Assembly (NCBI GenBank): GCA_964187785.1 | Contig: OZ076409.1 | Coordinates: 6,264,001-6,328,000 of the forward strand | Direction of reading: 5' to 3' | DNA: 64,000 nt | From: Amphiscolops sp. MND2022 | Lineage: Eukaryota | In this document: positions 18,601 to 40,700 of the stretch, in pieces | Numbering within the stretch: position 1 is the first letter of the stretch | Layout: the number at the start of each line of letters is the position of its first letter | Translations under genes and position numbers: made by a program | Notes under the pieces: model-generated | Told to the model about the DNA's origin: nothing | The model's database searches: none | What the model saw: only the letters and a program-made list of their open reading frames with translations

Positions 18601-18890
18601 AATGTTGTTCCCCGGGTCTGGCTATCTCCCATCGTCTTTCCATTAATCTTCTTGTCTCCGGATTATTCTCACGTCGTGGAAAACTCTCCCTTGTTTCTGC
18701 AAACGCCCCAGTGGAAACATGCTCGATTCATTTTTTGCCCAAAAAGGTGATAATGGTAACGTTTAACAATTATGAAATGGAAACGTTTCCAGCGTTTGAG
18801 TTTTTGTGAACTGCTAAGTGGACTAAGTTCCGCTTGTTCGTTTATTTTGTTAACGTCTCAGTTTTTCTCAAATTTTCCTGTCATTTTCCG
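15627..18890 (-). pseudogene. Degenerate Ty3/Gypsy integrase/3' internal region (second tandem copy), interrupted by a LINE
   Basis: Colinear paralog of 19320-20880 and 40290-40560; integrase motif G.AERAIQT.KN (16388-16705) and HHCC remnant near 18430-18560. Confidence 0.7.
16824..18235 (+). pseudogene. 5'-truncated non-LTR (CR1/L2-like) retrotransposon RT fragment
   Basis: IDLKKA.DT, GV.QG.IL...LF.LYIND, degenerate YADD (CAYDT), GVYLD..L.F..I motifs across frameshifts; TTCTA-repeat 3' tail. A 160-bp piece is duplicated at ~15465-15625. Confidence 0.8.
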
Positions 18891-21588
18891 TTCGGAATGG
18901 TTGTCAGGGAAAAAAAACGACAGAAAATAAAGATTCAAACTGTTTTTAACAGACACTCAAAACAAAACTGAAGTACTTTCACATAATTATGTAAATGATT
19001 CGTTAAAATAAAGGTAACAGGAAGCATATTGCATGTTTTGCCACTTGGTTGGATAAAAATTAGTTTTGAAATTGATGATCTCTTACTATGCCAAACTATA
19101 CTTATCAAACATACTACAGCAACGGCTCCGTAGCAAAACTAATCCAATGTACATATGTTTTTAACTATGTATCAACAAAAGGAGGAACGATTCTAGTTTG
19201 TTGATGAATGTTCTTTTTCAGTTTGATTGGCACTTCATTTTAGTGAACCGAATTTTTTCAGACGCGGTTTTACACCGTATTACATTCCCCTCTCGGGCTC
19301 TTTCCTCAATTTGGAAGTTGCTGGCATCGAGCTCATCAGTCTTTCAAAGTCCAAAGTCATATAGTCGTGGTAAATACTGTCTTGTTATTTCGGTTATGTC
19401 TTGAAACAAAGCATGTATTTGAGTTTGTTACCTTCAAAAGTTTTTGATATACGGCACTCCCCCGTACCTATTCGGCCGTTTACATTCTCGATTTGATCTT
19501 CTAACAAATTGTTTTATTTTGAATTTTATTTTTCACTCTCACCGATAGGTATCTCATCATTAGAATGCAGGGTTTATTCTTCTTCGGGATTTGTGCTGCT
19601 TGGCTTAGACCCGTTCTTTTCGGATGTATCTGGATTTTTCTTTTCGCAATCTTTTCTTCGTCTATTTTGACTTCATCGCTCTGATTGTCCGATTCTGTAT
19701 GATTTTCAGCTTCCCATTCAGTATATCTCGGAGTATCTCATTCCTCAGAATGTAATATCCGTCTTCCCCTTGAAGAAAAAGTGGACTTTTCGGGATGATT
19801 CTGTCTCCGATTTGCGATGCCCGGATTTGTTTTTTTTTCGTTCGGAAATACCATCGGTCCCGAAATTGTTTTCGGTAGTTACGGTATGTTCAGTTTCGCT
19901 GACCGCGGTTTGCAATGTTTTGGAGTTTTCTTTCGGGATATTTTTATCTGATGTTTTTTTTCCACAAATTTCAAAGTATAACCATTAACCGTATTTTTCT
20001 TTTTCGGTTGACTTTTCTGTTTTTCTTCGGCTTGGTTTTTGTTATCACGAGGTAGTTTGTGATGTCTCCGTCTCCGTCCCTTGATACGTAGATGGTCTTT
20101 TTGGCTTTTTCATAGCTGAAACAGACAGTGCGGACCAATCAGAAGGGTACAATTTACCGTCTTTAACCAGATTGAATACTTCGTTTCGTCGTTTTTCACA
20201 GCTATGTAATCCAAAGAATGTTAATTTTAATCCCGTTAAATTGTAAATTCTCTTTACGTTTATTGCTCAATAACCGAATTCGGTCAGGCTTAAGGTATCT
20301 TCTAAATTGGCCATCATCAGGTTCTTCATGTTTTGATTGCCCGTTCTGCTACTCCCAAACCGGTATGCATTCTTGGTGTGCAAAATTCGTTTTCAATTTT
20401 TTTTGACCATCAAAGCTCAATTAGTTCTTTCCAACCAACAATTCAGCCTTTATCCGAACCAAATCTTTCCGGTGTGCTGTATAATATTGTGCATAAGGTA
20501 AATTAGCACGTTCTTCGTCTCGTATATTTTACAAAATTCTACGGTTGGCTTTTTGCTAAATGTATCTTTCGCTAATAGTAATCAGCTTTCTCCATTGAGT
20601 TTTCAGATGTGTACTTTGTCTGTGAAATCAAATTGAATTTTTTGTTGCGGTTCGATAATTGTTTCAACTCTTCCGCTTTCGGCATTTGATACTTGAAGTT
20701 CTTACAGGACGCTAAGCAGGCTTTGCATTTTTTGACTTTATCTTTTATGTATTTGCTGATGTTTGGCCCCTGGAAAAGTTTTATCTCGGCAGCCATCTTG
20801 GTGGATCCGCAAGACCAATGTGTAGAGAGTGCAATAGTTTCTTCCGAAGTTCGGTCGGAACTACAATTTTGTCCTCATTTCATTGACAGTTTTTCGAAAT
20901 GTTGTCTCATTACAGTGGGGTAACCGGCAAGGCCTTCCAAAACTCGGAAAATGTTGGGCAAAAACTCGGGAATGCATGGGCGAGTTTTGTTGTTCATAAC
21001 TGAAAATCTCGGAAACGCATGGGCGAAGTCAACTAATTGTTGAACATAATCTGTCCATTCGTTTCCCACCAAGTGTGGCCTTTCAATTTGATAGAAACTT
21101 TGAATACATATCAAAAAATGTCCGAGATATACCTAATCAACTAAAGATAAGGATTTGCCGATTATCAGAATTTTAGTAAACCCTTCCCAGGTACTTTTTT
21201 TCGAAATAAATTTGAATAATGATTATCAAGCTTTCATGCTTCTCATCATTCCACCTTAAATCGAACAACTCTCATTTAATATAATTGAATAAGCTTAAAC
21301 TCATACTATATATCAATCAATAGGAAGATTAGGAGATTACAAGAAGATTAGATTGGTATCATAAGATCTTTCCGGGGGCTTGTCTTTTTGAACAATTTAA
21401 TCCTCATTACTTTTTGTTTGACTCAATTGTTTAATGTTATTGTTGTCAATTATTACAATGTCGCTCCACTACTGTTCTTTTGCCCCAAATCGAAAACAAA
21501 ATGATTCACAAGAGACTGATTCAATTAAGAAACATAATGGAAAAGATATCACAATTGTTATGGCAATGGATACAAAAAATGAATAAAT

Positions 21589-23156
21589 TTAAAAACTAAA
21601 CTGACTTCTGCAATTATTGGCTGCGGAACGACGATATTCGTCATCGCCATTTAAATTGTCCTGGAAACAATCGATAGATACTCGCACAGTTTTCAGCAGA
21701 AAATCGTTGTTAATTGAAAATTTTAGGCTTTTGATAATGTGGCAGAAAGTTTTAGGGAAGATTGGTGGGAGCATATCCCATTGTCGGCCTAGGGTACTGT
21801 CCCATTCTGCATTTTTGTGGAACTTTTCTGAGTCAGGATCTATATGAAATTTGACTTGGTGTCCAGAACCCATTAAAAAGATATTCTTGGAAATTTCGTC
21901 AACCAAGCAAATGTCCTGATTCATCATTGTGCGTTTGGACTGGGATATCCCGACCAAACGTTTCAGCGCTGACAGGTAATGAAAAGCTCTATTCACAGGT
22001 GAACAAGCTGCGGACAAGTCCAGAGCTTTCTGCTTCATGTAGTTTGCTTCTGTCAACACTAGCTTTACAGCTGGGTAAGTGATGGAGTAGCATCTGTCTT
22101 CTTCATCGACCAGTTTCGCCATGGCCTTCTTCATCTCCACGTCGAACCATATCTTCTCCAATTTCATCGTGAAGACCGTGCTCCTAATGTTTATCGTAAC
22201 GTGGTCACCTGATAACAGAATGCGAATATTCAGTTTCATTTAGTAATAATAATTTATTAACCACTTGAGAAAGATTTATGCGACAAAGTTTCTATAAGCA
22301 TGTAAATTTTTCGAGAGGACGCTCGTGGCAAAAAACTTGGTTTCAGTTTTTTTGTTTGATTTTTTTAGTACCGTAGAAGTTAGACTAGTAATAATCAAAT
22401 TGATCATTTACCTGCTGATGCAATACCATTTTCGCAGGGTACAATGTCCAGAAGTTCGTCTTTCTCGGCAAGACTCGCAATATATGCGGCAATATCAATT
22501 TTCTGTCTGGGAGTGGTTATAGTGGGTTCTGGTTCTGCATCTGTTTCTACTACTCTCTTTTTTTGCCGCGATGGTTGGACATCTTCGGGCTCCGAATCAA
22601 ACTCTGAAGGCTGCCTCGTGTCAGGATGAGTCCAGTTCTTCGGACGAATTTGTTCATAGTCGATGAACTGGATGTCCTTTGTGCGCCCGTCGAAGGAAAC
22701 AGCCATATTTTGCTGGAATGGGTCATTCATGACAACATAACCCGAGTTCAGCAGCTTCGACTCCTCGGCATCTTTTCTAACCTCTTCCAAACTAGGAATG
22801 TCCGCTGGTGATTTCCGTGATGTCCCAGTGAAAAAGATTCTGTCCCCTAGTTGGCGCTTTCTTGGGTCGGGGATGTCAAAAACGGTTTCTGCTGGCTTCT
22901 TGGATTTCCGGCGACCGCGGACATCTTGTAATACTATACATTTTCTAACCGGCCAGCAATTTTGGGGTGTGTTGGGGGACACTTCAATTCTGTCTGATCC
23001 GAATCGCTTCACAAGTTTATCGGGCCAATTGAGGTATTTCACTCGGATTCCAAATGATCCTTCAAACCCAATGATGCGAGCATCTTCCCAAATTTTTGTT
23101 GCAGGATCCAAAACTTGAACTTGCTCTTTCATATCAAAAACACTGATGAAATCCAT
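21589..23156 (-). CDS. Tudor/chromo-barrel-like protein; join complement(22412..23156,21589..22208), ~454 aa
   Basis: In-frame phase-1 intron (GCAG|gtaaat ... ttatcag|GT). N-terminus FDMKEQVQVLD...WEDARII...IRVKYLNW fits the PHF20-Tudor/MRG15 chromo-barrel pattern; possible second barrel (LGDRIFF...GYVV...MAVSFDG...FIDYEQIRP). C-terminal exon not recognised. Confidence 0.6.
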
Positions 23157-23431
23157 TTCAATTAATGAAATTAGTGCTTTATTTTTCAAGAAATTTAATT
23201 TCGTAAACGAGTATTTTCAGTATTGCATTTGCCACTAATGTTTATCAAGCAAGTTTGAGCAAATAAAATCGTTATCGGGACAAATGATTATCAAGTGAGT
23301 TTGATCGACTCAAATCGTTACATACGCATAAGATGAATTTTAAATGTCAGACGCATATTAATTAATTGTCAGACGCATTTTAAATGACAATAAACCCCCA
23401 GACACTTTTGCACGGAACATCCAAAACGTAG

Positions 23432-23760
23432 CACGATAAATTTATAATTTTTTGTCAAACGCTTTTCGATCAAGCAGACGCATTTCAAAATCCACGTGAG
23501 TGTGAGCACGCTAAAACTACAATTACTCGATTTATTTCCGATATAATCAATAACATCAATAACGTAATACGATAATTTTATAATATTTTGTCAAACGCTT
23601 TTCGATCAAGCAGACGCATTTCAAAATCCACGTGAGTGTGAACACGCTAAAACTACAATTACTCGATTTATTTCCGATATAATCAATAACATCAATAACG
23701 TAATACGATAATTTTATAATTTTTTGTCAAACGCTTTGCGAACCAGCAGACGCATTTCAA
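23432..23760. repeat. ~137-bp tandem repeat (about 2.4 copies) in the divergent promoter
   Basis: ACGATAA..TTTTGTCAAACGCTTT..GCAGACGCATTTCAA unit starts at ~23432, ~23569 and ~23705. Confidence 0.85.
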
Positions 23761-23865
23761 GAATGGAAACGCTAGTGTGGAAACGATAAAGTGTCAATAC
23801 GCTTTTGAAAAAACAACAACTACTAGAATAACTTCCAATATAACTTTCGACGTACGACAATCAGG

Positions 23866-26800
23866 ATGACAATACACCCCGAGAAGCTTCTGCACGATTA
23901 CACTGAAACAATTGATGGAAAAAGTTTTGTGGATGCTAAAATTTTGGATGTTTTTGCTGGGCATATTATAAGAGAAAAATCTCGAAAACTGAAAAGCGCG
24001 ATCGAAATAGTAATTGAAGGAACTGAATTAAAACTCGAAGATTGTGTAAAAAACAAAAAAAAACTTGCTTTGTTGCAATTGGAATATTGCAAATAATAAT
24101 TGTTCGTGGTTTACAAAGTGGGTTTCCATGGACACAATTACGAAGAAGATACGTGTCCTATTTTTTCCCAAATACGCCGCAGCTAATTCCCGACTCACAA
24201 CCTTTTGTCAATCCACTTCCAATGCCAACAATCCCAGTGGAGCAGTTTTCTAAACCTGAATCAGGTTTCAGTCAGAAGATGCATACAATTCTCGCAACAT
24301 TAGCAGCTACAGAACAAAAGCGGATTCATACTAAGGCCCAGAAGACCTCTCTGCATCAATTTGAAGCCAAGGCTCTGGTTAAGGGTGTTTTTTCAAACTA
24401 TTTATCGTACGAAAAGCTGAAGTCAGACATATTTATCTGTACTAAAACTGGTAGTTGGATAAATATGATCAACACGCTGAAAAAAACTTTCCATGTCGAT
24501 GGACTGGGTCAAAAACAACTAATTCCTGGTTATACGGCGATCAAAGAGATGTCAAAACCGATGATTTCAAAGTTTATATCCCTATTCAAACCAAAAAACA
24601 CTTTCTCGGGATTCAGAATTGATCTTGTACGTGCTATCAAAGTCATGACATTCATTCTGTTCAAAGGAAGAACTGATTTGCAAGGTCTGAAAGTTGATAT
24701 TTGGGGAGATGGTGTTCAAATAGGGAAAAAGGATCAAACTCGAATGGCCTTCCGTTTTCTCGAAGGAACATCTATCAGCAATCAGTCATCAGATGCACTC
24801 TTCTCTTTTGCTGTTTTCCAAGGTATGTTCTGCTATTTTGTCCTGCTGAATCTTTAAATATAATTTAGCTCTAGGTTAGCTTCGCACACTTTACAATACG
24901 TGTTTACAGGTCACGACGGTCGTTGGTTGCTAGAGCAAAATGTCGGGTACCTGGAACTAGGTGAGCAAGATTCCTCTTGGCTTTACCAGCAGACGAAACA
25001 ACTCCATGACGCCGGAGTCCTTTTAACATACAGTGGAGATCAACCATTCCTAAATCGCCTTCTCATTGGAACCTCTGTTGATCACATGGAGAGTGAAGAA
25101 AATCCATCAAAATTGCAGATGTATCTTGGGAATGACGATTCAGTTAAACCAGAAACCGTGCACGAAAAAAGTGGACATCGAGGTGATGTTCGCCTACCAT
25201 TTCGAACCACCATTCCTCATGAAAGTTTGACGTTTTTGCCAGACATCAGATGCGTTTGTCCCGACGGCACTCATGCAATAACAAGGTGTGTCGAGGGAGA
25301 CATTAGAAAGTTCATGGAGTTGAAAATTCTCCAATCTGAAGATGACTCAGCTACAGTTGATTATATTAGGGAAAATTTTCAGCGCAATTTGACCGAGAGA
25401 GGTTGGAAAGAGCCTGGCTTCGAATTTGACATTGACAAACGCAACAAAAAATGTGCTCCCATTTCCCTTAGTGGCAGAGAAGCTATCACTGGCATTGCTG
25501 ATATGTACGAACTTGCTGAGGCTGGTGTTCAGCATGAACTGTTCGAAGGAGTTTTTTCCGAGAACAAGACTGTTGGAGCCTTGTCGGGTACAAAAAGTGC
25601 AAGCATGAATGTGTTGAAAAATCTTCATCCCAATTCATTCGAAAATATCGAAAGCCCATGTCAAATGAAACTTTTGGTTGCAGCTGAACTCTGGAGAAAG
25701 TCACTAAATCAGCTTACCGTGCTGATGAGGACGAGGAAGAAATTCGAAGAACAGGACTTTTCCGACTATAAATACTGGTCAGAAATCCACTATCACATTT
25801 CGATTGTACTGTTCGATGTAAAACTAGGTTTGACACCGTACAGACTGAAACTGTGCCTGATTCCCCAGCTGTTAGAAGGAGGCTACATTGAATCACCCTT
25901 TAACCACCTGTGCGAAGGCCCCGAAAAATCAAATCATCATGTCCATAGAGACTTTCAGCAAAAGACCATGCGAGGGGGAGGGACAGTTCGACACGCCGAC
26001 CCCATGTTTCTCGAAATGTTTTTCACTTTCTGTTCTGGTCTCCGGTTTTCGACTTTGGAAGGCACAATCGACGAACAGCTCTCACTTTGCCATCAACGGC
26101 TTTTCAATGAACCCATAGAGGTGAACCTATCTTTTTTAGACTCCCTGGGACCAACTGAGAAAGCCATCATTCCCGTTGGAAAAGTTCGAGAGAAGTCCCG
26201 CCTTTTCTTGGGTAAGGATTTTTTTTGTACCTATATGCCCACGTCCAACTTTTTTAGTTATGAAACCTAAGTGGTATAAATTTAGCGAAATTTAGTTGGA
26301 TAAACCAACAATATAGTGTGAATTTTGCTTTTCTTGCGACTCCGAAATAAATGTAGTGGATCGTTGAACAAATGTTTGACTTGAGTTTTGCTGAATATTT
26401 GTATTGCACCGCAACACGTTGACAAATATTAGTCCTAAGTTACTCGGATGAAATACTTCCTCAAAACAGCAACAGATTCCAAGTACCACTGGCGTAGTGG
26501 TTACTTCGTGCGACGTTCCGTCGTTCCGCCGCTCGTTCGCTCTTGGTATACAGGTTCGCTTCTCTGCGCCGCTGTTGGTGCAGCCTTCGGTAACCAGTGG
26601 CTGGTATTGTGTCTGGTATTGTGTGTGGTAGCCATTGGCTGGTATTACTTGCCATAGATGTCGATTGCCGGTGACGACCGCGCATTCAACAACTGTGGCA
26701 ATTAGTGAGTAGATTGAGATTGGAATTCTCTCTGGCGGAAAGAGAAATCCAATCTCAATCTACTTATTTTTATGTTTTCAACTTATTATTTGCAATTAGT

Positions 26801-27833
26801 TCTTCGCTTAACAGTGAGTTTTGAATGATGCAATTACATACCTGTTCAGAACGATCGTAGCAAAGAAAATAGAATACAGTAGTGATATTATTAAAAGCAA
26901 CAAAAGGCAAATTTTAGAATCAAATATCTATCAAAAAGCATTTGACTGAAGGACTTGATATGTTTTGATTGAGAAATTATATTAAAGTCTCAATGAAACC
27001 ACGCTGTAAAAATAGGCGTTTTCGAAAATACTAAGTTTTTAATAATCTCACTACTGTACATGCAAAACCGTCTTAGAATTATACGGCAATAAGCACGTTC
27101 GGCAATGGAAGGACCACCTTAGAAACCTGTTGTTACATATTCGAAGTTCGGTATATAACCAATTGTTTTCACAGAACTAAACAATATTCCGTTTGCTCCA
27201 GGATCGAGATTCTTTCTGCACGGGAAATTCAATAAAGAGCAACGAATTCAACATGAAAACCAAGATGGAAAAACTCTTGGACCCGCTGAGTGTCTCAAAA
27301 AAGTTATCAAAAAAGCGGGAGGGAAAGTTCTAGAACGAGCAGCATTGAATACTCTCCTCTCCAGACACTCCAAGTTGCCACACATTTACGTGGTTCTCCA
27401 AAATGACACAGATCTTATTAGTGCAACAACGTCGTGTGATTCTTTGCCACAAGTGACAGAATTTATGGCCAAAGGAAAATGCAAAAAAAGGAAACTAAAT
27501 GAACCAAGTCGAACCAGTTACGTTTTACGACACTTGGCCAGTCGTGGACTTACGTTTCTATCCGTTGACTATATTTTGAAAAGTATCGAAACTTCAACAA
27601 TTTTGGATGTGGAGTCTTTTGCGTTCAAACCAGGGCCAGACATCCCATCAACTTCTGTTCGTGATCATCGCAAAATTTTCCTTCTTCAGAGGAATCCCGA
27701 ACTACAAAACACAACTTCAGCTATAACATCGGTACTTCGTAAACGACGAGAAATGCTGAAGAAGCGCGAACAAGAAAAAATGAATGACGCTCAGAAAGAA
27801 CACGATGAATCATCCTCAGACTCATCAGACTGA
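23866..27833 (+). CDS. RAG1/Transib/Chapaev-like DDE transposase with C-terminal BRCT-like domain; 23866..~24054, -1 frameshift, ..24822, 24910..26211, 27202..27833 (~960 aa)
   Basis: In-frame GT-AG introns 24823-24909 and 26212-27201. Ordered motifs KVDIWGDG, NQS..ALFSFAVFQGHD, YSGDQPFL, CPDGTHAITR, TPY, EGPEKSNH parallel the RAG1-core SCDG / YDEK / DALH / TNY / EGNESGNK blocks. Exon 2/3 junction LFLGSRFFLHG...LKKVIKKAGGKV...YVV...LSVDYILKSI fits BRCT. Confidence 0.72.
26877..27056. mobile_element. MITE in transposase intron 2
   Basis: TA|CAGTAGTGATATTATT ... AATAATCTCACTACTG|TA. Confidence 0.75.
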
Positions 27834-28235
27834 GAATCATTTGATAATCATAATTGATAAATCGTGAAAACTTTGATTCGAACAATAATAAATTATTTTT
27901 ACCTGTTTTTATTGTCAAAATTTAATTGAATCATTCGAATTGTTTTAAACAAATTCAAAATAGAAACGTACCAAAAAGTAGCAGCGCAAAATACTAAGTA
28001 AAAACCGAAAAGAAAGAATAAAACCAAATCTTTCAAAGACCAAGAACTGGAATTCAAAATTCTAAAGTATTACTACAGTAAACTGCGAAATTGCATCAAG
28101 TGCTGAAATACTTCGCTGAAAACAAGTTTCGAGATTTAATAATAATATATATCAATACAATGAAATAAAATAATAAAGGTTAAGAATATGTAAAACAAAA
28201 AAATTTTATCTCGAAAATGGTTTTCAACGAACTAA

Positions 28236-31200
28236 TCAATCAAGAGACCAAAAAGTGTTTCGACCGAGTTTTTTGTCAACAATTTGAAATAGGTGAGTTA
28301 ATGATATGTTCCTGTTTGGGAAATTGAGAGACATGTACCGGTTGATAGTTTGCACAAATTTTCGTCGATTGCTCTTGGATCGGCTGTCATTTTTGGAATT
28401 GAAGCTGAGGACATGTAGTGCTTTGGCCAGAAGCTCCCATTTCATTAGCCTACAGTTCCCAATGGCACTCTCTAGAATAACTTTCGTCATTAACGATAAG
28501 AAATGTGGGAAACATTTCTCAAGAGGTTCATCATTGTCCCGTTCCCTCTGGTAAACAGTCAAAGTCGTGTCTAAAAACATATATGCACAAGCATTAGTAA
28601 AACTGCCTCGAACCCATAGAAGAAGTAAAACCCGAATTTTTTTGAGAAATTAACTTAATCCGATTTTAATTTTAAAAATGAAGATTTTTTCGATTTTTTT
28701 GCTTTTTACCTTTTATCTCTTCTAACAAACAACTGAGAAACAATTATATGAAAACTGAATTTCAAAATTACCTAGATCACAGATGGTGAGAAAATTGAAT
28801 CCCACGGCCACGCTGTCCGCACAGGTTCTGACCATATGTATCATGCCTGCTGGCATGATCATTGACTCGCCGCCTGTTATCGTCACTTTAAACACTTGAC
28901 TTTGGAGGTGGGTGTCACTTGGTAGGAAAACATTTTGTTTTGTTGCCTCAATGCACCAATTCTCGAGAATTTCTTGGTTTCGAACTGTTCCAGGAATCAT
29001 GAAAAACTCTTTTTTACCGTGAAGAAGATGGTAAAAGACGCTGGTATTCGTGTAGTCAACATGCCAAGGTGTAATGGAACCTTTTTGACTGAGAAGAATA
29101 TAGCAATTTTGCTCCAGCTCAAAATTGAATAAATGAGACACTGAAAGTTCTTTAACTGCCGTTGGTACATCGAAATGCAAGTTCTTTGTGAGACTGGAGC
29201 TAAGATCAAGGACATTCATTGGGCCGCTCATAGCTCCAAACTCAATGGCATTTACAAAATCTTTTCCTGAGAGTGTCAAACACAGGAGTTTTTGCAGCTG
29301 AAATAGACATGTGTTGTATATGAAAAAAGAATACACTTCGAAGATCTACAATTTTGGTTTTAAAATATAAAAACCCTAATATTTTTTAAATGTTCGGTTT
29401 TCATTGGTGAAGTTAAAAAGACGAAGCCAAAAACGAACACTGACAGGTTTGTACATTCGGACAGATAATTGTACATCTTCTGCGTGTAGACAGTCTTCGA
29501 AGATGTTTCTTCGCGCTCCAAAGTTGATGTTGGGCAATTTCATACCATCCATATGTCCTCGAACAATACAGGCTCTTTTCCGCTGCAGCTCCTCCTCTAT
29601 TTCGCTGCTGGTAACATTGGTGCAGCAAACTCGCATCTCGGACCCGGAAGATTCTCTGATTACATCCAGCAGCTCATGATGCTCTGCTTCATCCACAAAT
29701 GCAACCAGAGAAACTTCTTCATCTTCTGCTTGAACCTGTTCGTAGCTGTTGGAATCTGAAACGAAAATTGTCAATATCATAATAAAGTTTTTTAAATGAT
29801 TGGTAGATGTTTTTCGAATACTTTTGATGAGTATCAGTGGATTCGTTTGGCAAGTAGTAAAATTGGTATGTAGAAATTTTGATATAGGTAAAACAATAGG
29901 ATTTTATTGTACCTTGGGGATTGTGTGTGGCTACTTCTTCACTTTCGTCTTCCTCACGGTTCTCTTCCTGGAGGGATTCTTCATTGCTGTCAGAATCTGA
30001 AACAAACATCGTCAAAATCAATTTAACGTTATTGAGATGATTGGTTGTTTGTCGAATATTTTCGATACGTAATATTGATATAGGTAAACAAGTCGAAGTC
30101 GTGTCTAAAAACACATATGCACAAGTATTAGTAAAACTGCCTTGAACACATGGATGGAACAAAATCCGATTTTTTTAAAAATTAACTCAATCCGATTTTA
30201 ATTTTAAAAGTAAAGATTTTTTGATTTTTTTTGCTTTTTACCTTTCATCTCTTTTAACAAATAACTGAGAAACAATATTTTATGAAAACTGAATTTTATT
30301 GTACCTTGGCGAACGTGTGTGGCTACTTCTTCTTCACTTTCGTCTTCCTCACAGGTCTCTTCCTGAAGGGCTTCATTGCTGTCGGAATCTGAAACAAAAA
30401 TCGTCAAAATCATTATAAAATTATTGAGATTTGTGGATGTTTTTCGAATATTCTCGATAAGTATCAGTGGAATCGTTTGACAAGTAGGCAAATTGGTGTA
30501 GAAAAATTGATATAAGTAAAACGATAGGATTTTATTGTACCTTGGCGAACGTGTGTGGCTACTTCTTCTTCACTTTCGTCTTCCTCACAGGTCTCTTCCT
30601 GGAGGGCTTCTTCATCGTTGTCAGAATCTGAAACAAAAATCGTCAAAATCATAATAAAGTTAGAGAAGATTGGATGTTTTTCGGATATTTTCGATAAGTA
30701 TCAGTGGAATCGTTTGACAAGTAGTCAAATTGGTGTAGAAAAAATGATATAGGTAAAACAATAGGATTTTATTGTACCTTGGCGAACGTGTGTGGCTACT
30801 TCTTTTTCACTTTCGTCTTCCTCACAGATCTCTTCCTGGAGGGCTTCTTCATCGTTGTCAGAATCTGAAACAAAAGTCGTCAAAATCATAATAAAGTTAG
30901 AGAAGATTGGATGTTTTTCGGATATTTTCGATAAGTATCAGTGGAATCGTTTGACAAGTAGTCAAATTGGTGTAGAAAAAATGATATAGGTAAAACAATA
31001 GGATTTTATTGTACCTTGGCGAACGTGTGTGGCTACTTTTTCACTTTCATCTTCTTGACGGTTCTCTTCTTGGAGGGCTTCATTGCTGTCGGAATCTGAA
31101 ACAAAAATCGTCAAAATCATAATAAAGTTAGAGAAGATTGGATGTTTTTCGGATATTTTCGATAAGTATCAGTGGAATCGTTTGACAAGTAGTCAAATTG

Positions 31201-33847
31201 GTGTAGAAAAATTGATATAGGTAAAACAATAGGATTTTATTGTACCTTGGCGAACGTGTGTGGCTACTTTTTCACTTTCATCTTCTTGACGGTTCTCTTC
31301 TTGGAGAGCTTCATTGCTGTCGGAATCTGAAACAAAAATCGTCAAAATCATTATAATGTTAGAGAAGATTGGATGTTTTTCGGATATTTTCGATAAGTAT
31401 CAGTGGAATCGTTTGACAAGTAGTTCACAAATTGGTGTAGAAAAATTGATATAGGAAAAACAATAGGATTTTATTATACCTTGGCGAACGTGTGTGGCTA
31501 CTTTTTCACTTGCATCTTCTTGACGGTTCTCTTCTTGGAGGGCTTCTCCATTGCTGTCAGAATCTGAAACAAAAATCGTCAAAATCATTATAAAGTTATT
31601 GAGAAGATTGGATGTTTTTCGGATATTTTCGATAAGTATCAGTGGAATCGTTTGACAAGTAGTTCACAAATTGGTGTAGAAAAATTGATATAGGAAAAAC
31701 AATAGGATTTTATTGTACCTTGGCGAACGTGTGTGGCTACTTTTTCACTTTCATCTTCTTGACGGTTCTCTTCTTGGAGAGCTTCATTGCTGTCGGAATC
31801 TGAAACAAAAATCGTCAAAATCATTATAATGTTAGAGAAGATTGGATGTTTTTCGGATATTTTCGATAAGTATCAGTGGAATCGTTTGACAAGTAGTTCA
31901 CAAATTGGTGTAGAAAAATTGATATAGGAAAAACAATAGGATTTTATTATACCTTGGCGAACGTGTGTGGCTACTTTTTCACTTGCATCTTCTTGACGGT
32001 TCTCTTCTTGGAGGGCTTCTCCATTGCTGTCGGAATCTGAAACAAAAATCGTCAAAATCATTATAAAATTATTGAGAAGATTTGTGGATGTTTTTCGAAT
32101 ATTTTCGATAAGTATCAGTGAAATCGTTTGGCAAGTAGTCAAACTGGTATGTCGAAAAATTGATATAAGTAAAACGATAGGATTTTATTGTACCTTGGCG
32201 AACGTGTGTGGCTACTTCTTCTTCACTTTCGTCTTCTTGACGGTTCTCTTCTTGGGGAAAGTGTGTGACTACTTCTTCTTCACTTTCGTCTTCCTCATAG
32301 GTCTCCTCCTGGAGGGCTTCATTGCTGTCGGAATCTGAAACAAAAATCGTCAAAATCATCATAAAGTTATTGAGAAGATTTGTGGATGTTTTTCGAATAT
32401 TTTCGATAAGTATCAGTGGAATCGTTTGGCAATTAGTCAAACTGGTATGTCGAAAAATTGATATGAGTAAAACGATAGGATTTTATTGTACCTTGGCGAA
32501 CGTGTGTGGCTACTTCTTCTTCACTTTCGTCTTCTTGACGGTTCTCTTCTTGGGGAAAGTGTGTGACTACTTCTTCTTCACTTTCGTCTTCCTCATAGGT
32601 CTCCTCCTGGAGGGCTTCATTGCTGTCGGAATCTGAAACAAAAATCGTCAAAATCATTAAAAAGTTATTGAGAAGATTTGTGGATGTTTTTCGAATATTT
32701 TCGATAAGTATCAGTGGAATCGTTTGGCAAGTAGTCAAACTGGTATGTCGAAAAATTGATATGAGTAAAACGATAGGATTTTATTGTACCTTGGCGAACG
32801 TGTGTGGCTACTTCTTCTTCACTTTCGTCTTCTTGACGGTTCTCTTCTTGGGGAAAGTGTGTGACTACTTCTTCTTCACTTTCGTCTTCCTCATAGGTCT
32901 CCTCCTGGAGGGCTTCATTGCTGTCGGAATCTGAAACAAAAATCGTCAAAATCATCATAAAGTTATTGAGAAGATTTGTGGATGTTTTTCGAATATTTTC
33001 GATAAGTATCAGTGGAATCGTTTGGCAAGTAGTCAAACTGGTATGTCGAAAAATTGATATAAGTAAAACGATAGGATTTTATTGTACCTTGGCGAACGTG
33101 TGTGGCTACTTCTTCTTCACTTTCGTCTTCCTCACAGGTCTCTTCCTGGAGGGCTTCTTCATCGCTGTCAGAATCTGGTTCGATGTGAACTCGACGGTAC
33201 CGACGTGACGTCCTTCTCTGTTCTCTTCTTCTTCTCGAATCCATCCTCGCTTGCCATCGTGGGTGTTCGATCTTCTTCTTTGGGGTCCCTTTGATTTTAA
33301 TCAGGTCTTTGATTCGATGGGAATAACCTTTCCCCTCCCGCCGTCTTTTTTCCGACCAGCTGTACTCTCCTGGCACATTGCCTTTGGGCTTTTTTTTAAG
33401 AACAGCGGATTCCCCTTTAAGATAAAACGATTTGTATTTTTGCTTCAGGCAATCGTAAGCAGAACTTTCCTTGCACAATTCCTCGATGTTTTCTGGTGTT
33501 GGTTCCAACAAATTTCCTGGGTACCATTCCTCCCTTTGCAACTCAAACACTTTCAGGGTGCAAGTTCTTCCGAGGGAGTGTTGAGCGGTCCTGTGATAGC
33601 TAAAGAACGGTCCTCCGTCTTTCTCGCCGCATCCACAAAAGCGACAAATAAAATTTGCCCGACTCTAAATTTTTTGTGCAATGCAGGTGAACTCCAGCTG
33701 GTGTTCTTCAACAGGTCTCTTCCTTGGTGCCCAGTCTTTGTACATGTGCCTCTGGCACGCAACTTTTTCGCTGAATTTTCTCCGGCATTCTGAAACACAT
33801 ATTCCGATTAGTATTGGTGAAAAACATGTTTGAAAAAAAATCGACAT
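28236..33847 (-). CDS. Zn-finger + acidic-repeat + JmjC histone demethylase (KDM2/KDM7-PHF8 type). Exons: ~33089-33847 (start uncertain; in-frame TAG at 33665-33667), 12 repeat exons, 29445-~29755, 28772-29297, 28236-28570
   Basis: MNVLDL, CYILLSQKGSITPWHVDYTNTSVFYHLLHGKKEF, GESMIMPAGMIHMVRT..DSVAVGFNFL and the downstream VYQRE....KCFPHF match the KDM2/7 JmjC and JHD helix. Fe ligands HxD...H and 2-OG residues T/Y/K/N are present. Splice phases are consistent. Confidence 0.82.
29755..33180 (-). repeat. Tandem array of intron+exon units (~230-240 bp and 298 bp) encoding DSDSNEALQEE..EEDESEEEVATHVRQ
   Basis: Each unit has a tttgtttcag|AT acceptor and a CAAG|gta(c/t)aat donor; the units I translated are phase 1-1 and frame-preserving. 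12 repeat exons, plus one copy at the end of the large upstream exon. Confidence 0.9.
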
Positions 33848-34404
33848 TTTAAATTCTATTTCAGATATCCGAACAGATCATCAAAATGATAATGCCATTT
33901 AAGACTTGGAAACGCATGGGCAATTTGAAACGCAGAAATACATGGCTTTTTCATTGCTTTTCATCACTCGGAAACGGATGGGCGAAAGTTCAATTCATTT
34001 TATGCCAATTAGCTTACGTTATTTCATACTTCGGTTTTTATCCCCTATTTTGAAACGATAATTGAAGGTTCGCACGTCATCAGGTAATTATCACCACAGT
34101 TGATTTGAAAAGCGTCCTTAAATGAGCTCATCTTCATGCAAATCTAAATAGCACATCCGCAAAGCTATTACCAACGGTATGTACTACTTTTTTCAATAAT
34201 TAAATAATTCATTATCAGAAATGAATAATTATCATATATGTACTATTTAATACGAAGATCACCATTTTTCTTTAATTATAATATACCACAGTTGATTGAC
34301 GAAGCGTCTTTGAATTAGTTCGAATTTGGATCGCTCAAGGAAAGGATTGAGCACTCACCATTCAATCCAAACAGTAGCTAGAAAACAGTCTCTTTTACAT
34401 AACG

Positions 34405-36820
34405 ATGAACCCTCCTCAACATGAGAAATCTCTCTCTTACACTGTCTTGGGGACTAGCCCGGCTGTGACAAATTCTGTTGCTCCAAACGAAACATTTGAA
34501 AGATTTTCGACTCCATTTAAACCGAATGAAAGCAACTTTGCATACTACATGAGTACTCCCTTGGATCAATCTAGTTCGACACAACAGTTGTATGGATCAC
34601 CCAGTGTGTCATCTAAAAGCTGGCCAAGTTTCACCCAAGTTGAACAAAGGATATTTTCACAAATCTCTAATATAGAAGGTGTGAATTATGAAGATAGCCC
34701 TTCGGACGTCTCGATAATGGTACAAGCTCAACTTGCTGCAAATCAAATGACACCTCTGTTAATCAACACTGCAAATCAACTGAACCACACTCCGAATGAC
34801 AGTACGACGAATCAACTGAGCCACACTCCAAGTGACAGTACGACGAATCAACTGAGCCACACACCGAGTGACAGTACGACGAATCAACGGAGCCACACCC
34901 CAAGTGACAGTACGAGCCACACTCCGAGTGACATCATGGCAAGCCAACTGAGCCGTTCTTCAAGTGATATCGCGGCAAGTCAGCTGAGCCAAACTCCGAG
35001 TGATATCATGGCAAGTCAGCTGAGCCGTTCTTGCAACGACACCTTGGCAAACATGGAAAGATGCCAACAGGAGATAGCGAACAAGCGGAAACTTAACCAT
35101 TATGATGAGGAAAACCATGGCCCAAAAAGTAAACGATGTGTTCCCAAAAACTATGAGAAAAATTTGCGAGAAATTACCCCAGTGCACCTAACATTATGCA
35201 CAACTGTTGAAGCGCGACTCTTGTCAGACCTTTATGACATAATGAAGCAATTCAAATTCGCAAAATCTCTAACCAGCATTGACAAAACCAATTTGTTTGG
35301 GGACCTCATTGCTTATTTGCTGGAATTTTCTATTCCAAAGTGTAGAGATCGCAAAATTTTGAGCATTACAACTCATGCCGTTTTACAAATGGTCCCTCAA
35401 ATTCAGCACAATAGAAGTTCTAACTCAAGTGACTTGTTAGTCTTGCAAATTGAAGATGAAGCTGGGTACTTGGACAGCTTCAGAATTCCTCACATTGTTG
35501 GAGAAGCAATGTTAATATATTTTGAAGCTGTACGACCGTACTTCATAAAACCTGAAGGTATCGACCAGAAAAAAAGGTTCATGCAGTCACCCAGTCAAGG
35601 GATACCACCATATTACGTCATGACGGAGCCATTCTTTGTCAACAGCTGGGGAAAAACACAATTCAAAGTGCGGAACATAAGAAATCGGATTGAACAGGTA
35701 ACTAATCAAATACTGTTTGATAAGAATTACTTGACTCAGTTTGATTTGTATTAGTCGATAGTAACCATAAGACATAATCACAAGTTGGAATATCAAAAAC
35801 ATCTTCCTTTTGCAGTTTTCGCTTATTTCAATAACTATCTGCGTGTTCTAGTTTTCCGACTTGACAAGAAACCCAGCCGAACGTGAAATGGACAGATTGG
35901 AAAGAACTGTCAAACTGATGACACTTTCAAAATGTTCAGCAGAAGAAGAATTTTGGTCTGAATCTTACCTGATGATGGAAGTCAAAAAACATTTGAGGCC
36001 CAGCGGACATTACGATGACAGAACGGTCATGAAAGTAGTCGAAAAAAGAATTCAAGCACTTAGGCATCAAAGAGCAGATATTAGGGCGGCCGAATACAAG
36101 AGCCACTACCCTACATCACTAGCTGACCCTGCGAAAGAAAGAGAGAGAATAATCGATTTTGCAAACTTGGTCAACTGGCCCCACTTCACAGATGTAAAGA
36201 GAGTCATGGATGCTTCTTCTAGAATGTCTGGGGTATCAAGATCTCGACAAAGTTCGCGCAAAAAAGCATTCAATCCAAATCTAGAATGGAGACTTTGCAA
36301 TACCCCTTACTTCCAAGATGACTTGAAAGATAGATGCGAAAACCAATTCTGGCCAGGCGTCTGCGATGTTGTCTATCCTACAATGGGTCGAGGAATAATC
36401 GCGACCAAACCATTTAACAAGGATGACGTTATTTTTGACTACCACGGACATGTAGAAGAAAACACGAACAACGTCGACTACTACTGCAGTCTGGACCCAG
36501 AGAACCGCAAGCCAGAATACTGCATCGAGGTTAAAACAAGGCCGGGAAGAATTATTGATGCAACCTCGGAAATATGCCCCATCCACAACGATGGCAGAAG
36601 GTGCCTTGCTCGATTGTGCAATTACTCAAGTACCTTTGATGGTGGAAAGACCAACCCAGCTTGTAACATGAAACTGGTCGAATTGAAATGTACATACTTG
36701 AAAAATAATCCGCGTTACGTGCTACTTATTGCAAAGCGGAAAATTGAACCCCTGGAGCAGCTGATGTTTGATTACATGGACCCCGAAGCCAATAGAATTT
36801 TCGGCGGTAATGCCGAGTAA
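34405..36820 (+). CDS. SETD8/PR-Set7 (KMT5A)-like SET-domain protein; join(34405..35697,35852..36820), ~753 aa
   Basis: Phase-0 intron (GAACAG|gtaact ... ttctag|TTT). C-terminal GRGIIATKPF.KDDVIFDYHG, IDAT, LARLCNYS, LLIAKRKI...EQLMFDY match SETD8 (GRGVIATKQF..GDFVVEYHG...RLINHS...EELLYDY). N-terminal Ser/Thr-rich 12-aa repeats. Confidence 0.85.
34775..35040 (+). repeat. 36-bp coding minisatellite (NQLSHTPSDSTT-like, ~7 copies)
   Basis: Repeated CAACTGAGCCACAC.CC.AGTGAC units inside ORF 34405. Confidence 0.85.
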
Positions 36821-36909
36821 AACCATTGATAAACTCGAACTTTGTTTTTAACTTATCAGTTTTTATATAATTTTTGTTGGAATATTAGTCATTGTCATCT
36901 AGTCAAATA

Positions 36910-37146
36910 CAGTGGTGATATTTTTAAAAGCAACAAAGCCGCTTCAAAGTCTGCGGCAGGTGAAAAAAAAACTTCAAAGTCATCCCAAAACATGTATTTT
37001 CGAAAAAATCTTCAAACAAACATATTTGTAAACTAGATAAAAATCTAGAATACGTTTATTTTTATAAGTTTTCATAAACCACTGCCGTTTTAGAGATATT
37101 CGATTTTGAGATTTGCCTTTTGATGCTCTCAATAATATCACTACTG
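36910..37146. mobile_element. MITE, same family as 26877-27056
   Basis: TA|CAGTGGTGATATT ... TTTGCCTTTTGATGCTCTCAATAATATCACTACTG|TA. Confidence 0.75.
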
Positions 37147-37653
37147 TATATTATCTTCGGGTTTTGTTTTCTTTGTCAATTTTGAATTCAAAATATGCCA
37201 ATGGATATTCCAAAAAGCAGATATCGATTAACACTCTCAAGGAATCATATAAAAGAACTAACTGGGGCAGACGGTCGGATCGTTGAGGAGGCTGATTTGA
37301 TCCCTATCAGTCAAAATGTGCTCCTGGAGAGTGACTTGTTCATCATCGGTCTCAACTTCCTCGTTTCCTGCAGCAACGTAGTCAAACGTGAAACATTCGG
37401 ATTTAGTTTTCCTATTATTCATGTGTTCAAATAGTGGTTGATGAACTGCGGGCATTAGTCAAAACATAGACACATGTAAGATTTCAAAAAGTTCATGTTA
37501 AAAACTAACTCTGACAGACGGTTGGCTCATCTCTGTCAGTCGAAACGCCGCGGTGTTCTTGAAGAACTGCTTCGGTACTGGCTTCTCTATCATGATGAAG
37601 GCTTGGCCTAAATTTGGGCTGAAAAAAACAACAAATTTGCCAAATTTACATTA

Positions 37654-37700
37654 AAGTGGGGTAACCGACAAGGCCTTCCAAAACTCGGGAATCCATGGGC
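37654..37700 (+). repeat. Internal direct copy of the transposon left end
   Basis: catta-AAGTGGGGTAACCGACAAGGCCTTCCAAAACTCGG versus catta-CAGTGGGGTAACCGGCAAGGCCTTCCAAAACTCGG at 20908-20947. Confidence 0.9.
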
Positions 37701-40700
37701 ACGTTTTGATATCCGTAACCGAATTTCTGGCAACCAAATGAGCAAAACTTTTGAGATTAGAATAACAGTGTATTTCTATATAAGCATTATATTTAATTTT
37801 TTTTGACTAAGAAATATCGGTGAATTCCCAAATAACATAAGAGCAAATAACATAAAAACAAAATTAGTTTCAAATAACATTAAAATGAAATGGGTTTCAC
37901 TAAACATAAAAATAAAATTGTTAATGAGAAAATATCAGTGGTCAAAAGCATACACAATTCAAAAGATTCACTGAAAAAAGTGTGGAAATTACAGATAAAA
38001 TTTTCTGAGTTCGATCGTTTTACCGGGTATTCGGTTTTATTTTTATGTTCTTTGACACTAATTTTGTTTTTATGTTATTTGCATTCATTTGTATGTTTAG
38101 TGAAACTCATTTCAATTTTGTGTTTTGAAATTAATTTTATTTTTGTTGTTTGTTCTTATGTTATTTAGGAAATCACCAACGTTTATCAAGAAAAAATATT
38201 GAAAGCAATTATTAAAACCAAAGTATTAAAAAGCCAACCCTGAAAGTTAATAAATCAACTGATTAACTCTAACCTGTTTCAAATGGTCCGGTAAGTCGTC
38301 TAGTTCAATGTCCAGCTTCCGGATCCGTAAAAGTAACGTTTTTAACATGGCAATGACAATTGAAAACAAATGACTAACTTTTACACGCACAGTATCAATA
38401 TGACCTCATCGGAATATGCGATGAAAGAATTTCGTCCAATCAGAAGCGAGTATTCGGTTTCGTTCATCAAGATTACATGTAGTTTGATCAACAGAAAAAC
38501 AAATAAACTTTTGCTCCCGTATTACAACAATCTTACTGATTTACTTGTGCACTTAAATCACTAAAATGGAAGTGAAATTACTTTGAACATTTAGTAACAT
38601 TCCACTTCTTGGAGCGTTGACTTTAACAACTGATAAGAACGTTCACACTTTGAAAAAATGGTGAATATCAGAACAATCATTTGATCAATTCTCAATAAAT
38701 AAATCAATGACGTTTCACAGGATACCAACTCAATTAATAAATATGAAAAAATCAATTGTTTTGTTATGATTGAAAAAACCTAAACTCATTTTATATATCA
38801 ACTATACTGTTCTTTTGCCCAAAACAAAGAATCCTGATTTTTGATGATTAGATTAATTGTCAATAAATAAATCAATGACGATTCACAGGATACCAATTAA
38901 ATTAATAAATATCAAACAACCATATATATCAATCAAGGTGAATAGTTGAATAAAGTTGTTTCTGTAGTAAGTGTACAACTATCAAACAATTTTTTGTTAT
39001 GATTGAAAAAACTTAAACTCGTATTATATATCAACTATACTGTTCTTTTGCCCCAAAACAAAAACGATTCACAGAATACTGATTTAATAAGTTCCAAAAA
39101 AATGAAATACATCAAAATTACATACTAACACATCATAATATACCTACACATCATAATACATCAAAATATTTGTAATTATCATAATTGCCCGATCATAATT
39201 GCCATTATATACAAAAGAAAAGAATAGTTAAGTATTAAACAGTATTAAAATAAAGTAAACTAAAATTTATCACGATAATAATCTTGCAGTGATTGGCCGG
39301 AACGAAAAAAGTATTAGGGTTATATTCCTGCAGATATCGGCTTCGGAACGAAGATTTTCGTCATTGCCAATTTTATTTGTCCCGCCTAAAATACTGGGAA
39401 AATAATAGTTGAGCTGATATTTCTTAGTCAAAAAAAATTAAGAATTTAATTTGATAACTAAATTAATTTTAGCTGAATTAATTTGATAAACCAAAAACTG
39501 AACACTGAAAATCTGCATGTGTAGATAAATATTGAGACACTTCCATGTCAAAGCAGTGTATTGAATTGGCCGAAGCGAGTGGCAGATCTATCTAAATCTT
39601 GAAATTCTTTGAGCAAGCGATGGAATTACTTGCCCAATTTACTCTCATCAACGAGTATGCATGGGCAATTAAAGCCATCGCTCCTGCAAAGAAACTCAAT
39701 ACGTAGCTTGTGCTTCCTCGGAAATCAATAGGCAACAGTTTTGGCTGCGAAACGAATGGGCATTTTTGGCCCATACATTCATTCATGTCCATCATTTTCC
39801 GAGCCGCACAACGAGTAAAATCTGCATTTTCGTTGCCGGTTACCCCACTGTAATGCTGTATGCTCTGCTGCTATGGTGCTGTCTTCTCTATTCAAAGCTT
39901 TTTTCACCCGGATCATTTCGGATTCCAATGTTGATTTCGCTATCTTGCTTTTTAGGTCTAGCATGAAATACGTTTCCGCCATTTTGATTGCCTCTAGGGG
40001 GATTTTTTTTCATTTCGGTGACTGAGTCGAAGATTTGGTTGATTTGCACGAGATAAGTTTTTTCCTTTCTCTTCTTTTTCTGGGTCGTCCATTTGATTTT
40101 CCGGGACTTATTACTCCGGTTGTATTTCTTCCGGTTCGTTTTTAGTTGCTTCAAAAGGCTGATAGCCTCCCCCAGTCGATTGGTGCGCGGCTGAAGCTCT
40201 CAGCCAATTTCAGCATTTTCCTCTCTGCTTCTTATAGTCGGTCGCGACGCGACACATATTATCCTTTGCGCATTTTGGTTGCAGCTTCGTCTCATTGTAC
40301 CGGGTATGTTTATCTCCCATCGTCTTTCCACTAATCTTCCTGTCTCCGGACTCTACTCACGTCGTGGAATATTCTCCTTCGTTTCTGCAAACGCCCCCTG
40401 TGGAAATAATCTCGATCCATTTCTTACCCAAAAGATGATAATGATACCGTTTGACAATTCTGTAATTGTAAGCGTTTTCAGCGTTTTATTTTAAGTGAAC
40501 TGCTAAGTGGACTAGTTTCCGCTTGTTCGTTTATTTTGTTCACGTCTCAGTTTCTCTCGAATCTGCCAGTCTTTTCTGATTGGTTACTTGTTTTGGGTTC
40601 GTTTTTTTTGTTCGTTACGTTCTGATATTAGCTCGTGATATATCGTCCATATTTTAATTACAACTCGGTTTGCTTGGTGGGAAAATTTATCACGTATTGT

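Follow-up and report, generated by a model that had tools for sequence, protein, structure and literature searches.

The window, i.e. the whole stretch of 64,000 nucleotides analysed here, contains a JmjC gene that is almost certainly the cargo of a DNA transposon. By all indications the gene is real and its catalytic set is conserved across lineages. The copy present in the window is damaged, and we infer the function of its product from the sequence. An earlier note on this DNA had described a transposon-borne JmjC domain with a complete set of catalytic residues; its observation is confirmed, and its interpretation is supported in part.

Structure and boundaries of the element

The element and its ends are located as follows (positions are those of the window):

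20908..39855: whole DNA transposon of 18,948 bp, with perfect inverted ends of 23 bp and CT flanks, splitting an LTR remnant
20908..20930, plus strand: left terminal inverted repeat, which begins with CATTA
39833..39855, minus strand: right terminal inverted repeat
37649..37700, plus strand: internal diverged copy of the left end, which starts with CATTA

The dinucleotide CT on both outer sides of 20908-39855 is a probable 2-bp target duplication, whose length is seen at one locus only. Alternatively, the boundary could be an 18-bp repeat from 20913 with a TA duplication. The reading with 23-bp ends is preferred because the internal left-end copy at 37649 also begins with CATTA. The sequences flanking the element correspond to a paralogous LTR-element remnant, 20524-20873 to its part at 18245-18593 and 40300-40575 to that at 18612-18886. 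As these are consecutive parts of one remnant, the two flanks were once one sequence. Their Pfam matches, both weak and below the cut-off, are RNase H on the right (E 1.4e-4) and integrase zinc-binding on the left (E 0.027). Inverted ends, target duplication, a DDE transposase and multiple copies are what defines a cut-and-paste DDE element, and all of these are found here. Together with an estimated dozens of copies and genes that travel together (see below), they bear out the transposon-borne position proposed for the JmjC domain.

Several other repeats were observed. Left-end sequence (20908-20950 and 21470-21525) recurs in diverged form in the right arm, at 37649-37691 and 39038-39088, possibly as a non-autonomous derivative. 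The second intron of the transposase (26877-27056) and the region after the SET gene (36910-37146) each contain a small MITE; the two are related, have CAGT(A/G)G ends and are flanked by TA. The inverted pair 26865-26940 / 37083-37158 was considered as the element ends and rejected, as it corresponds to two copies of a small TA-flanked MITE. The 1.65-kb stretch 37793-39441, with a 26-bp exact inverted repeat at its ends and a palindromic part at 37819-38177, is probably a foldback element nested in the right arm. A 136-bp tandem repeat (2.5 copies, 23416-23760) lies between an ORF of 250 aa and the transposase, which are divergently arranged. Outside the element, a 2.5-kb segment containing gag-like ORFs (zinc knuckle; weak DUF1759) is directly duplicated at 50181-52731 and 58148-60691 (95% identity), next to a 200-base gap at 52732-52931.

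Copy number and linkage of the element genes

Exact look-ups found the ORF proteins of the element on many contigs: the JmjC exon on 13+6, the exon linking it to the rest of its gene on 27, SET on 16, an integrase-like exon on 8, the N-part of the transposase on 16, the 250-aa ORF on 18 and a 216-aa ORF on 22. Six other sequences from the window gave no exact match in the same look-ups. The ORF clusters comprise 8 to 59 variants (43 for the JmjC exon, 31-59 for six ORFs). With contig size used as a fingerprint to tell contigs apart, element genes are present on at least 61 contigs of distinct size among the rows listed (up to 15 per cluster). Among the 15 JmjC rows listed, 14 share a contig size with a non-JmjC gene of the element: the 216-aa ORF in 6/15, SET in 5/15, the 250-aa ORF and the transposase in 4/15 each and the integrase-like exon in 1/15. 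As haplotypes or more than one assembly may be represented among the contigs, the figure of dozens of loci for this recently expanded element is an estimate.

The JmjC domain and its catalytic residues

The gene model derived from splice signals has 16 exons from 33789 to 28236 on the minus strand, for 1,016 codons, and the introns in the window are of the eukaryotic GT-AG type. The exon order is finger exon, twelve tandem acidic exons, linking exon, JmjC exon and last exon:

33088..33789, minus strand: finger exon, coding for an incomplete C2H2-like unit, a further Cys/His cluster and a run of basic residues
29913..32930, minus strand: twelve tandem phase-1 exons encoding an acidic linker (exon lengths, stop-free frames)
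29445..29755, minus strand: linking exon before the JmjC core (splice model; same ORF protein on 27 contigs)
28772..29297, minus strand: JmjC core exon with all catalytic residues (Pfam, PDB, residue mapping)
28236..28570, minus strand: last exon, with a JHD-like first helix (splice model, custom profile)

The exon 29297-28772 matches PF02373 in Pfam with 39.2 bits versus a cut-off of 24 (E 1.1e-9). All 14 PDB sequence matches at E<=0.001 are KDM2A, PHF8, KDM7A, a KDM7 homolog or PHF2, the best one with an E-value of 5.2e-18. On the minus strand, the codons for the iron triad have their first base at 29063 (His), 29057 (Asp) and 28838 (His), and the H-V-D...H Fe(II) triad described previously is thereby verified. 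The other active-site codons start at 29072 (Thr), 29033 (Tyr), 29012 (Lys) and 28796 (Asn). The equivalents in KDM2A according to the PDB alignment are, in order, T209, H212, D214, Y222, K229, H284 and N298. Judged by these alignments, the exon encodes a JmjC domain of the KDM2/KDM7 type in which the H-D-H triad is accompanied by Thr, Tyr, Lys and Asn.

T209 and K229 of KDM2A are 2-oxoglutarate ligands. A second Asn of the domain, within MNVLDL, is invariant in the 7/7 rows of alignment A6, and presumably has a 2-oxoglutarate role. The earlier note had placed Thr, Tyr, Lys and Asn together at the 2-oxoglutarate positions. All four align with KDM2A, but N298 is a residue of the methyl-lysine pocket and not a 2-oxoglutarate ligand (PMC4197961). 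This pocket is lined by Y199, L201, F215, D214 and N298 in KDM2A (PMC4197961). Y199, L201, D214 and N298 are identical in the element protein and F215 is replaced by Tyr, and the predicted pocket suits mono- or dimethyl-lysine. Histone demethylase activity at the family level is a likely property of the element JmjC domain. YTN takes the place of the FGG loop of KDM2A, and the flap that follows the domain appears unconserved, so that the sequence does not point to a particular substrate.

A JHD-like helix downstream of the JmjC domain had also been proposed. The first 30 residues of the last exon score 14.9 bits against a profile of the post-JmjC helix region built from 108 cellular hits. In a control with 500 shuffles the maximum was 5.6 bits, and 0/500 reached 14.9 bits. 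The custom profile thus suggests a JHD-like helix, and the last exon has no Pfam or PDB match. For the detected exons, the lack of PHD, CxxC and F-box domains holds as well. No PHD or CxxC pattern is present in the three minus-strand frames of 28236-34400, and Pfam gave no match to PHD, CxxC or F-box on the four open exon ORFs or on the sister protein P0194, a scan that leaves out the undetected first exon.

Among 19 listed JmjC rows of the same family, 11/11 that span all seven residues keep them; the other 8 are incomplete, truncated or frameshifted, and Val replaces Asp in one. Such damage is the decay expected of transposon copies.

Acidic linker, finger exon and a stop codon in this copy

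The first exon and the start codon of the JmjC gene were not located, the search yielding one weak candidate. The acidic linker spans 380 aa with 37% Asp+Glu. Its tandem exons all have lengths that are multiples of 3 (12/12; 81, 84, 87 or 141 nt) and are free of stops, versus 5/12 multiples of 3 for the introns between them. This would fit selection on the reading frame, bearing in mind that the exon copies are not independent. A segment of JmjC-gene intron is duplicated (28550-28762 and 30083-30296, 87% identity).

The finger region is 59-63% identical between this lineage and a second JmjC lineage, versus 48% for the JmjC domain. Its first unit reads C-x3-F...H-x3-D in both lineages, and the first Cys would fall in the undetected exon. 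The second Cys/His block is kept in 31/32 rows of these matching finger exons. The module matches no known family in Pfam or PDB, DNA-binding families included, and the best PDB finger match has an E-value of 5.4. The splice phases suggest that the finger module and the JmjC domain are joined in one protein. The Cys/His strings that the earlier note had put at the N-terminus do exist; they are located at 33789-33550, about 4.2 kb upstream and outside the interval to which they had been assigned. Two points need amending: the Cys of CQRH varies between the lineages (it is Arg in the second one), and in this copy an in-frame TAG separates the two clusters.

This TAG, at 33667-33665, is the single one in frame in the gene model. 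Its site encodes Tyr in 26/26 spanning rows among 36 sister copies listed. Compared with P0194, which is found on 12 contigs, the finger ORF of the window differs at 2/294 positions, namely the stop and one residue that is probably intronic. Neither read-through of the stop nor a tiny intron at 33667 was accepted as an explanation, given the Tyr of the sister copies in an otherwise identical ORF. The TAG of this copy would then be a nonsense mutation or a sequencing error. The full catalytic set announced for this gene is supported for the family. In the present copy, the modelled frame ends at codon 42 and the catalytic His would follow only some 765 codons later; this locus therefore probably makes no finger-linked enzyme. 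Downstream Met codons could still allow a fingerless product. This copy is a damaged member of its family, for which intact copies could serve in trans. Neither the stop codon between the fingers nor the frameshift in the transposase described below is mentioned in the earlier note.

A transposase with a RAG1/Transib-like fold and a BRCT domain

The transposase gene is the following:

23866..27833, plus strand: DDE transposase with a C-terminal BRCT domain (exons 23866-24822, 24910-26211 and 27202-27833)

Its candidate catalytic residues (D 24708, D 25038 and E 25923) are invariant in all rows covering them, and the BRCT_2 domain of Pfam is matched with 27.6 bits. No significant match to a Pfam transposase or to a PDB sequence was found. 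The fold was assigned with a model of the relative P0003 (mean pLDDT 66; 36-37% identical to the window protein), a first structure model with a pLDDT of 39.8 having been set aside. The P0003 model best matches Transib and RAG1 in Foldseek. VIA-align gave a Z of 12.8 for RAG1 (rmsd 5.4, 371 aligned), 11.6 for HzTransib, 7.5 for the P element and 11.4 for BRCT. According to this model, the transposase would have a RAG1/Transib fold.

Transib has a CAC terminus and a 5-bp duplication, unlike the present element. The CMCT clade is defined by C(2)C and H(3-4)H motifs, 5'-CA..TG-3' termini and a duplication of 2-5 bp (PMC12730594). The ends of the element agree with this definition (CA..TG, 2-bp duplication), and CATTA resembles the CATCA of PlavakaB. 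In contrast to the transposases of the CMCT clade, neither C(2)C nor H(3-4)H is conserved (among 9 rows covering most of the interval, C(2)C occurs in 1 and H..H in 2, with no shared position), and a C-terminal BRCT is present. With a RAG1/Transib fold and unconserved CMCT motifs, the enzyme would work like a Transib/RAG1 transposase and is not filed in that family.

Among longer proteins, three relatives of the transposase show 37-49% identity. Nine metagenome loci of 1.2-5.9 kb also encode relatives; they are too short to show neighbours, and 0/9 has a JmjC, SET or finger match. The BRCT-fused RAG1-fold transposase devoid of C(2)C/H(3-4)H has relatives in several other datasets (P0002 cluster; L001-L009). 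The P0002 cluster contains 21 variants, and those listed come from contigs of 23-451 kb. On viral contigs, neither the transposase nor the JmjC exon had a relative.

In this copy the transposase frame breaks in an A-run near 24046-24063. Eight of the 15 listed sister N-terminal ORFs read through this A-run. The ORF downstream of the break is identical on 16 contigs, which means that the most numerous subfamily may share the break. It may thus be non-autonomous and yet have an intact JmjC exon; the start choice of the gene caller is the other explanation.

The SET gene, other ORFs and a motif in the shared promoter

The remaining features of the element are the following:

34405..36820, plus strand: SET gene, with 36-bp repeats, then an integrase-like part and a SET domain resembling that of KMT5A/SETD8; an intron is probable at 35698-35851
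33790..34404: divergent promoter region of the JmjC and SET genes, with two copies of a 14-bp motif (33908, 33970) also found near both element ends
21589..22239, minus strand: 216-aa ORF (same protein on 22 contigs, cluster of 40)
22404..23156, minus strand: 250-aa ORF (same protein on 18 contigs, cluster of 57)

The SET domain, which the earlier note omits and which affects the mechanism, scores 34.7 bits in Pfam, above the cut-off. All its PDB matches (14/14) are SETD8/KMT5A, with a best E-value of 5.8e-5, and its NHS motif reads NYS (Tyr for His). Splicing out 35698-35851 leaves an open frame. The N-terminal part of the gene contains in-frame 36-bp repeats (34774-35050). The region before SET has feature matches of 0.91-0.93 to integrase-like clusters, with only 114-142 shared features. 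It has no Pfam match, and the R-K-H-R-H/W-Y residues of a tyrosine recombinase (Crypton-like) were not identified in it; "integrase-like" is used here as a lead only. The search for longer SET relatives found none. The 216-aa ORF matches no Pfam family above the cut-off, and the 250-aa ORF has no Pfam or PDB match. The N-terminus of the latter may resemble a Tudor/chromo-barrel domain.

The 14-bp motif is identical at 21011 and 33908. A degenerate pattern, chosen after seeing the sites, has 9 matches versus 0.56 expected. Of the 8 inside the element, 7 lie close to an end, to the internal end copy or to the JmjC/SET promoter. The hexamer ATGGGC by itself shows no enrichment (18 versus 13.8 expected). 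The 14-bp motif could also be a site for the transposase.

A second lineage and the origin of the JmjC gene

The second JmjC lineage forms a cluster of 78 that is 48% identical to the first one, and the seven residues are kept in 15/15 listed rows. The borders of its JmjC and finger exons are the same, and both exon sets likely come from one element, a transposon. In a tree of 142 rows (quick search, midpoint root; 13 rows dropped as too short or unmatched), the window protein and the second lineage group together (SH-aLRT 87) within a long-branch clade of 18 rows (SH-aLRT 100). This clade stands apart from 124 cellular-type KDM2/7 rows, and thus the element JmjC does not branch within cellular KDM2/7, which argues against a recent capture; with a quick tree and long branches, the clade may be partly due to long-branch attraction. 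Short divergent JmjC proteins of the same clade (P0010, P0012, P0016, P0018, P0034, P0038, P0056, P0097, P0100, P0106, P0114 and P0140) may mark further mobile elements.

Possible role of the JmjC protein

Our best reading, to which we give an even chance, is that the gene encodes a mono/dimethyl-lysine demethylase that keeps the chromatin of the element open. The transposon, a large cut-and-paste element that has expanded recently, would have carried the JmjC gene for a long time. Intact copies would encode a protein of about 1,000 residues, in which an extended acidic linker joins the conserved Cys/His module to a Fe(II)/2-oxoglutarate domain of the KDM2/7 type. The most likely activity of this domain would be demethylation of a mono- or dimethylated histone lysine. 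The Cys/His module may stand in for the PHD/CxxC readers of host enzymes and probably brings the enzyme to element DNA, with the 14-bp motif at the ends and in the JmjC/SET promoter as candidate docking site. Erasure there of repressive marks (H3K9me1/2, H3K27me1/2 or H4K20me1) would keep ends and promoters accessible. Among the host enzymes, PHF8 (KDM7B) removes the repressive H3K9me2 and H4K20me1 marks, guided by its PHD, and KDM2 removes H3K36me1/2, guided by its CxxC (PMC4687429). The CpG observed/expected ratio is 0.94-1.04 across the window, i.e. there is no depletion, which fits host silencing by histone marks rather than by CpG methylation, as far as can be inferred from 64 kb. Against an anti-silencing role counts that H3K36me1/2, the mark erased by KDM2, is not a silencing mark. 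Against a purely anti-silencing role counts that the same element carries a KMT5A-like putative writer of H4K20me1, the very mark that PHF8 erases, which this reading leaves unexplained. Self-directed anti-silencing by the JmjC protein could therefore go either way in our estimate.

The main rival is suggested by the KMT5A-like SET and the BRCT. SET and JmjC would form a writer/eraser pair that acts on the same residue, either H4K20me1 or a lysine in the transposase or in a repair protein. Together with the BRCT, they would set the timing or the site of transposition with respect to replication and repair, instead of opposing silencing. The nearest structures of SET are all KMT5A/SETD8, PHF8, which is structurally close to the JmjC domain, acts as an eraser of H4K20me1 during the cell cycle, the two genes diverge around a shared motif, and the transposase has a BRCT. 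However, the SET match is weak (E 5.8e-5) with Tyr for His in NHS, and the JmjC domain is equally close to KDM2A; we consider this pairing rather unlikely. It is improbable that the protein is an active but untargeted JmjC oxygenase, working in trans or on a non-histone substrate, with a Cys/His module that binds protein or RNA. The very long branch separating it from cellular KDM2/7, the changed substrate loops and a finger module without family match would agree with such an enzyme, whereas the methyl-lysine pocket residues are kept and SET and BRCT are on the same element.

Two further explanations concern the gene as cargo. JmjC and integrase-like/SET could be a mobile cassette of their own inserted within the DDE element, in which case the observed right end would belong to a small non-autonomous element starting at 37649. 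The internal left-end copy at 37649, the integrase-like features upstream of SET and the co-occurrence of only 1/15 listed JmjC rows with the integrase-like exon could be explained in this way. Such nesting is nonetheless very unlikely: the outer ends with matching CT flanks split one LTR remnant, JmjC rows co-occur with left-arm genes and SET among the rows listed, and the cluster sizes are similar (31-59 for six ORFs). Finally, the lesions in this copy and in others could mean that JmjC is a passively captured, functionless fragment of a host gene that looks intact through the youth of its copies. This is likewise very unlikely, considering that the gene is not nested among cellular KDM2/7 rows, that seven residues are kept across 52% divergence, that the linker exons keep their frame and that the finger block is highly conserved.

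Relation to known systems and significance

Like KDM2A (JHDM1A), KDM7A and PHF8, the element protein has the iron triad, equivalents of T209, Y222, K229 and N298, Y199 and L201, and a putative JHD-like helix. Unlike them, it has no PHD or CxxC but a Cys/His module and an acidic exon array, YTN for FGG, and a separate long-branch clade of multicopy genes inside a transposon. Transposon-borne chromatin modifiers are already known. The giant Plavaka elements of the red alga Bostrychia are DDE elements of 17-19 kb with several accessory genes, including SET and a putative 2-oxoglutarate oxygenase (bioRxiv 10.1101/2025.02.11.637652). They differ in host and transposase lineage; the oxygenase is ParB-fused and not described as JmjC, and SET is fused to an adenine methylase. 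TET/JBP in fungal transposons and SET in HarbingerS and MuDR have been proposed to counter silencing, which has been reported for VANDAL/VANC (PMC12730594). That paper presents no JmjC histone demethylase among these modifiers, and "jmjc" occurs 0 times in PMC12730594. Intron-containing, divergent KDM4-like JmjC genes lacking host reader domains are present on endogenized giant viruses in Amoebidium (PMC11244446). These are also borne by mobile elements but are of KDM4 type, with a viral carrier. PMC9406493 treats JmjC as a host eraser. Our search of the open-access literature, with Repbase outside its scope, revealed no published case of a DDE transposon carrying a JmjC gene.

The element bears on the question whether transposons actively erase the histone silencing marks of their host. 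The young multicopy family described here combines a putative enzyme whose active site is intact, a module that may target it, a candidate DNA motif, and naturally occurring copies both intact and broken, so that the idea can be put to a direct test. A RAG1-fold relative devoid of the usual zinc motifs and carrying a BRCT also bears on RAG/Transib evolution. Possibly, although we hold this only tentatively, the element represents an undescribed lineage of giant RAG1/Transib-fold BRCT transposons with a self-targeted chromatin-editing kit composed of a sequence-specific JmjC demethylase, a KMT5A-like methyltransferase and perhaps a methyl-lysine reader. If true, this kit would be a histone-level counterpart, probably in an animal, of the plant VANC anti-silencing system, and the recent expansion of the element would depend on it.
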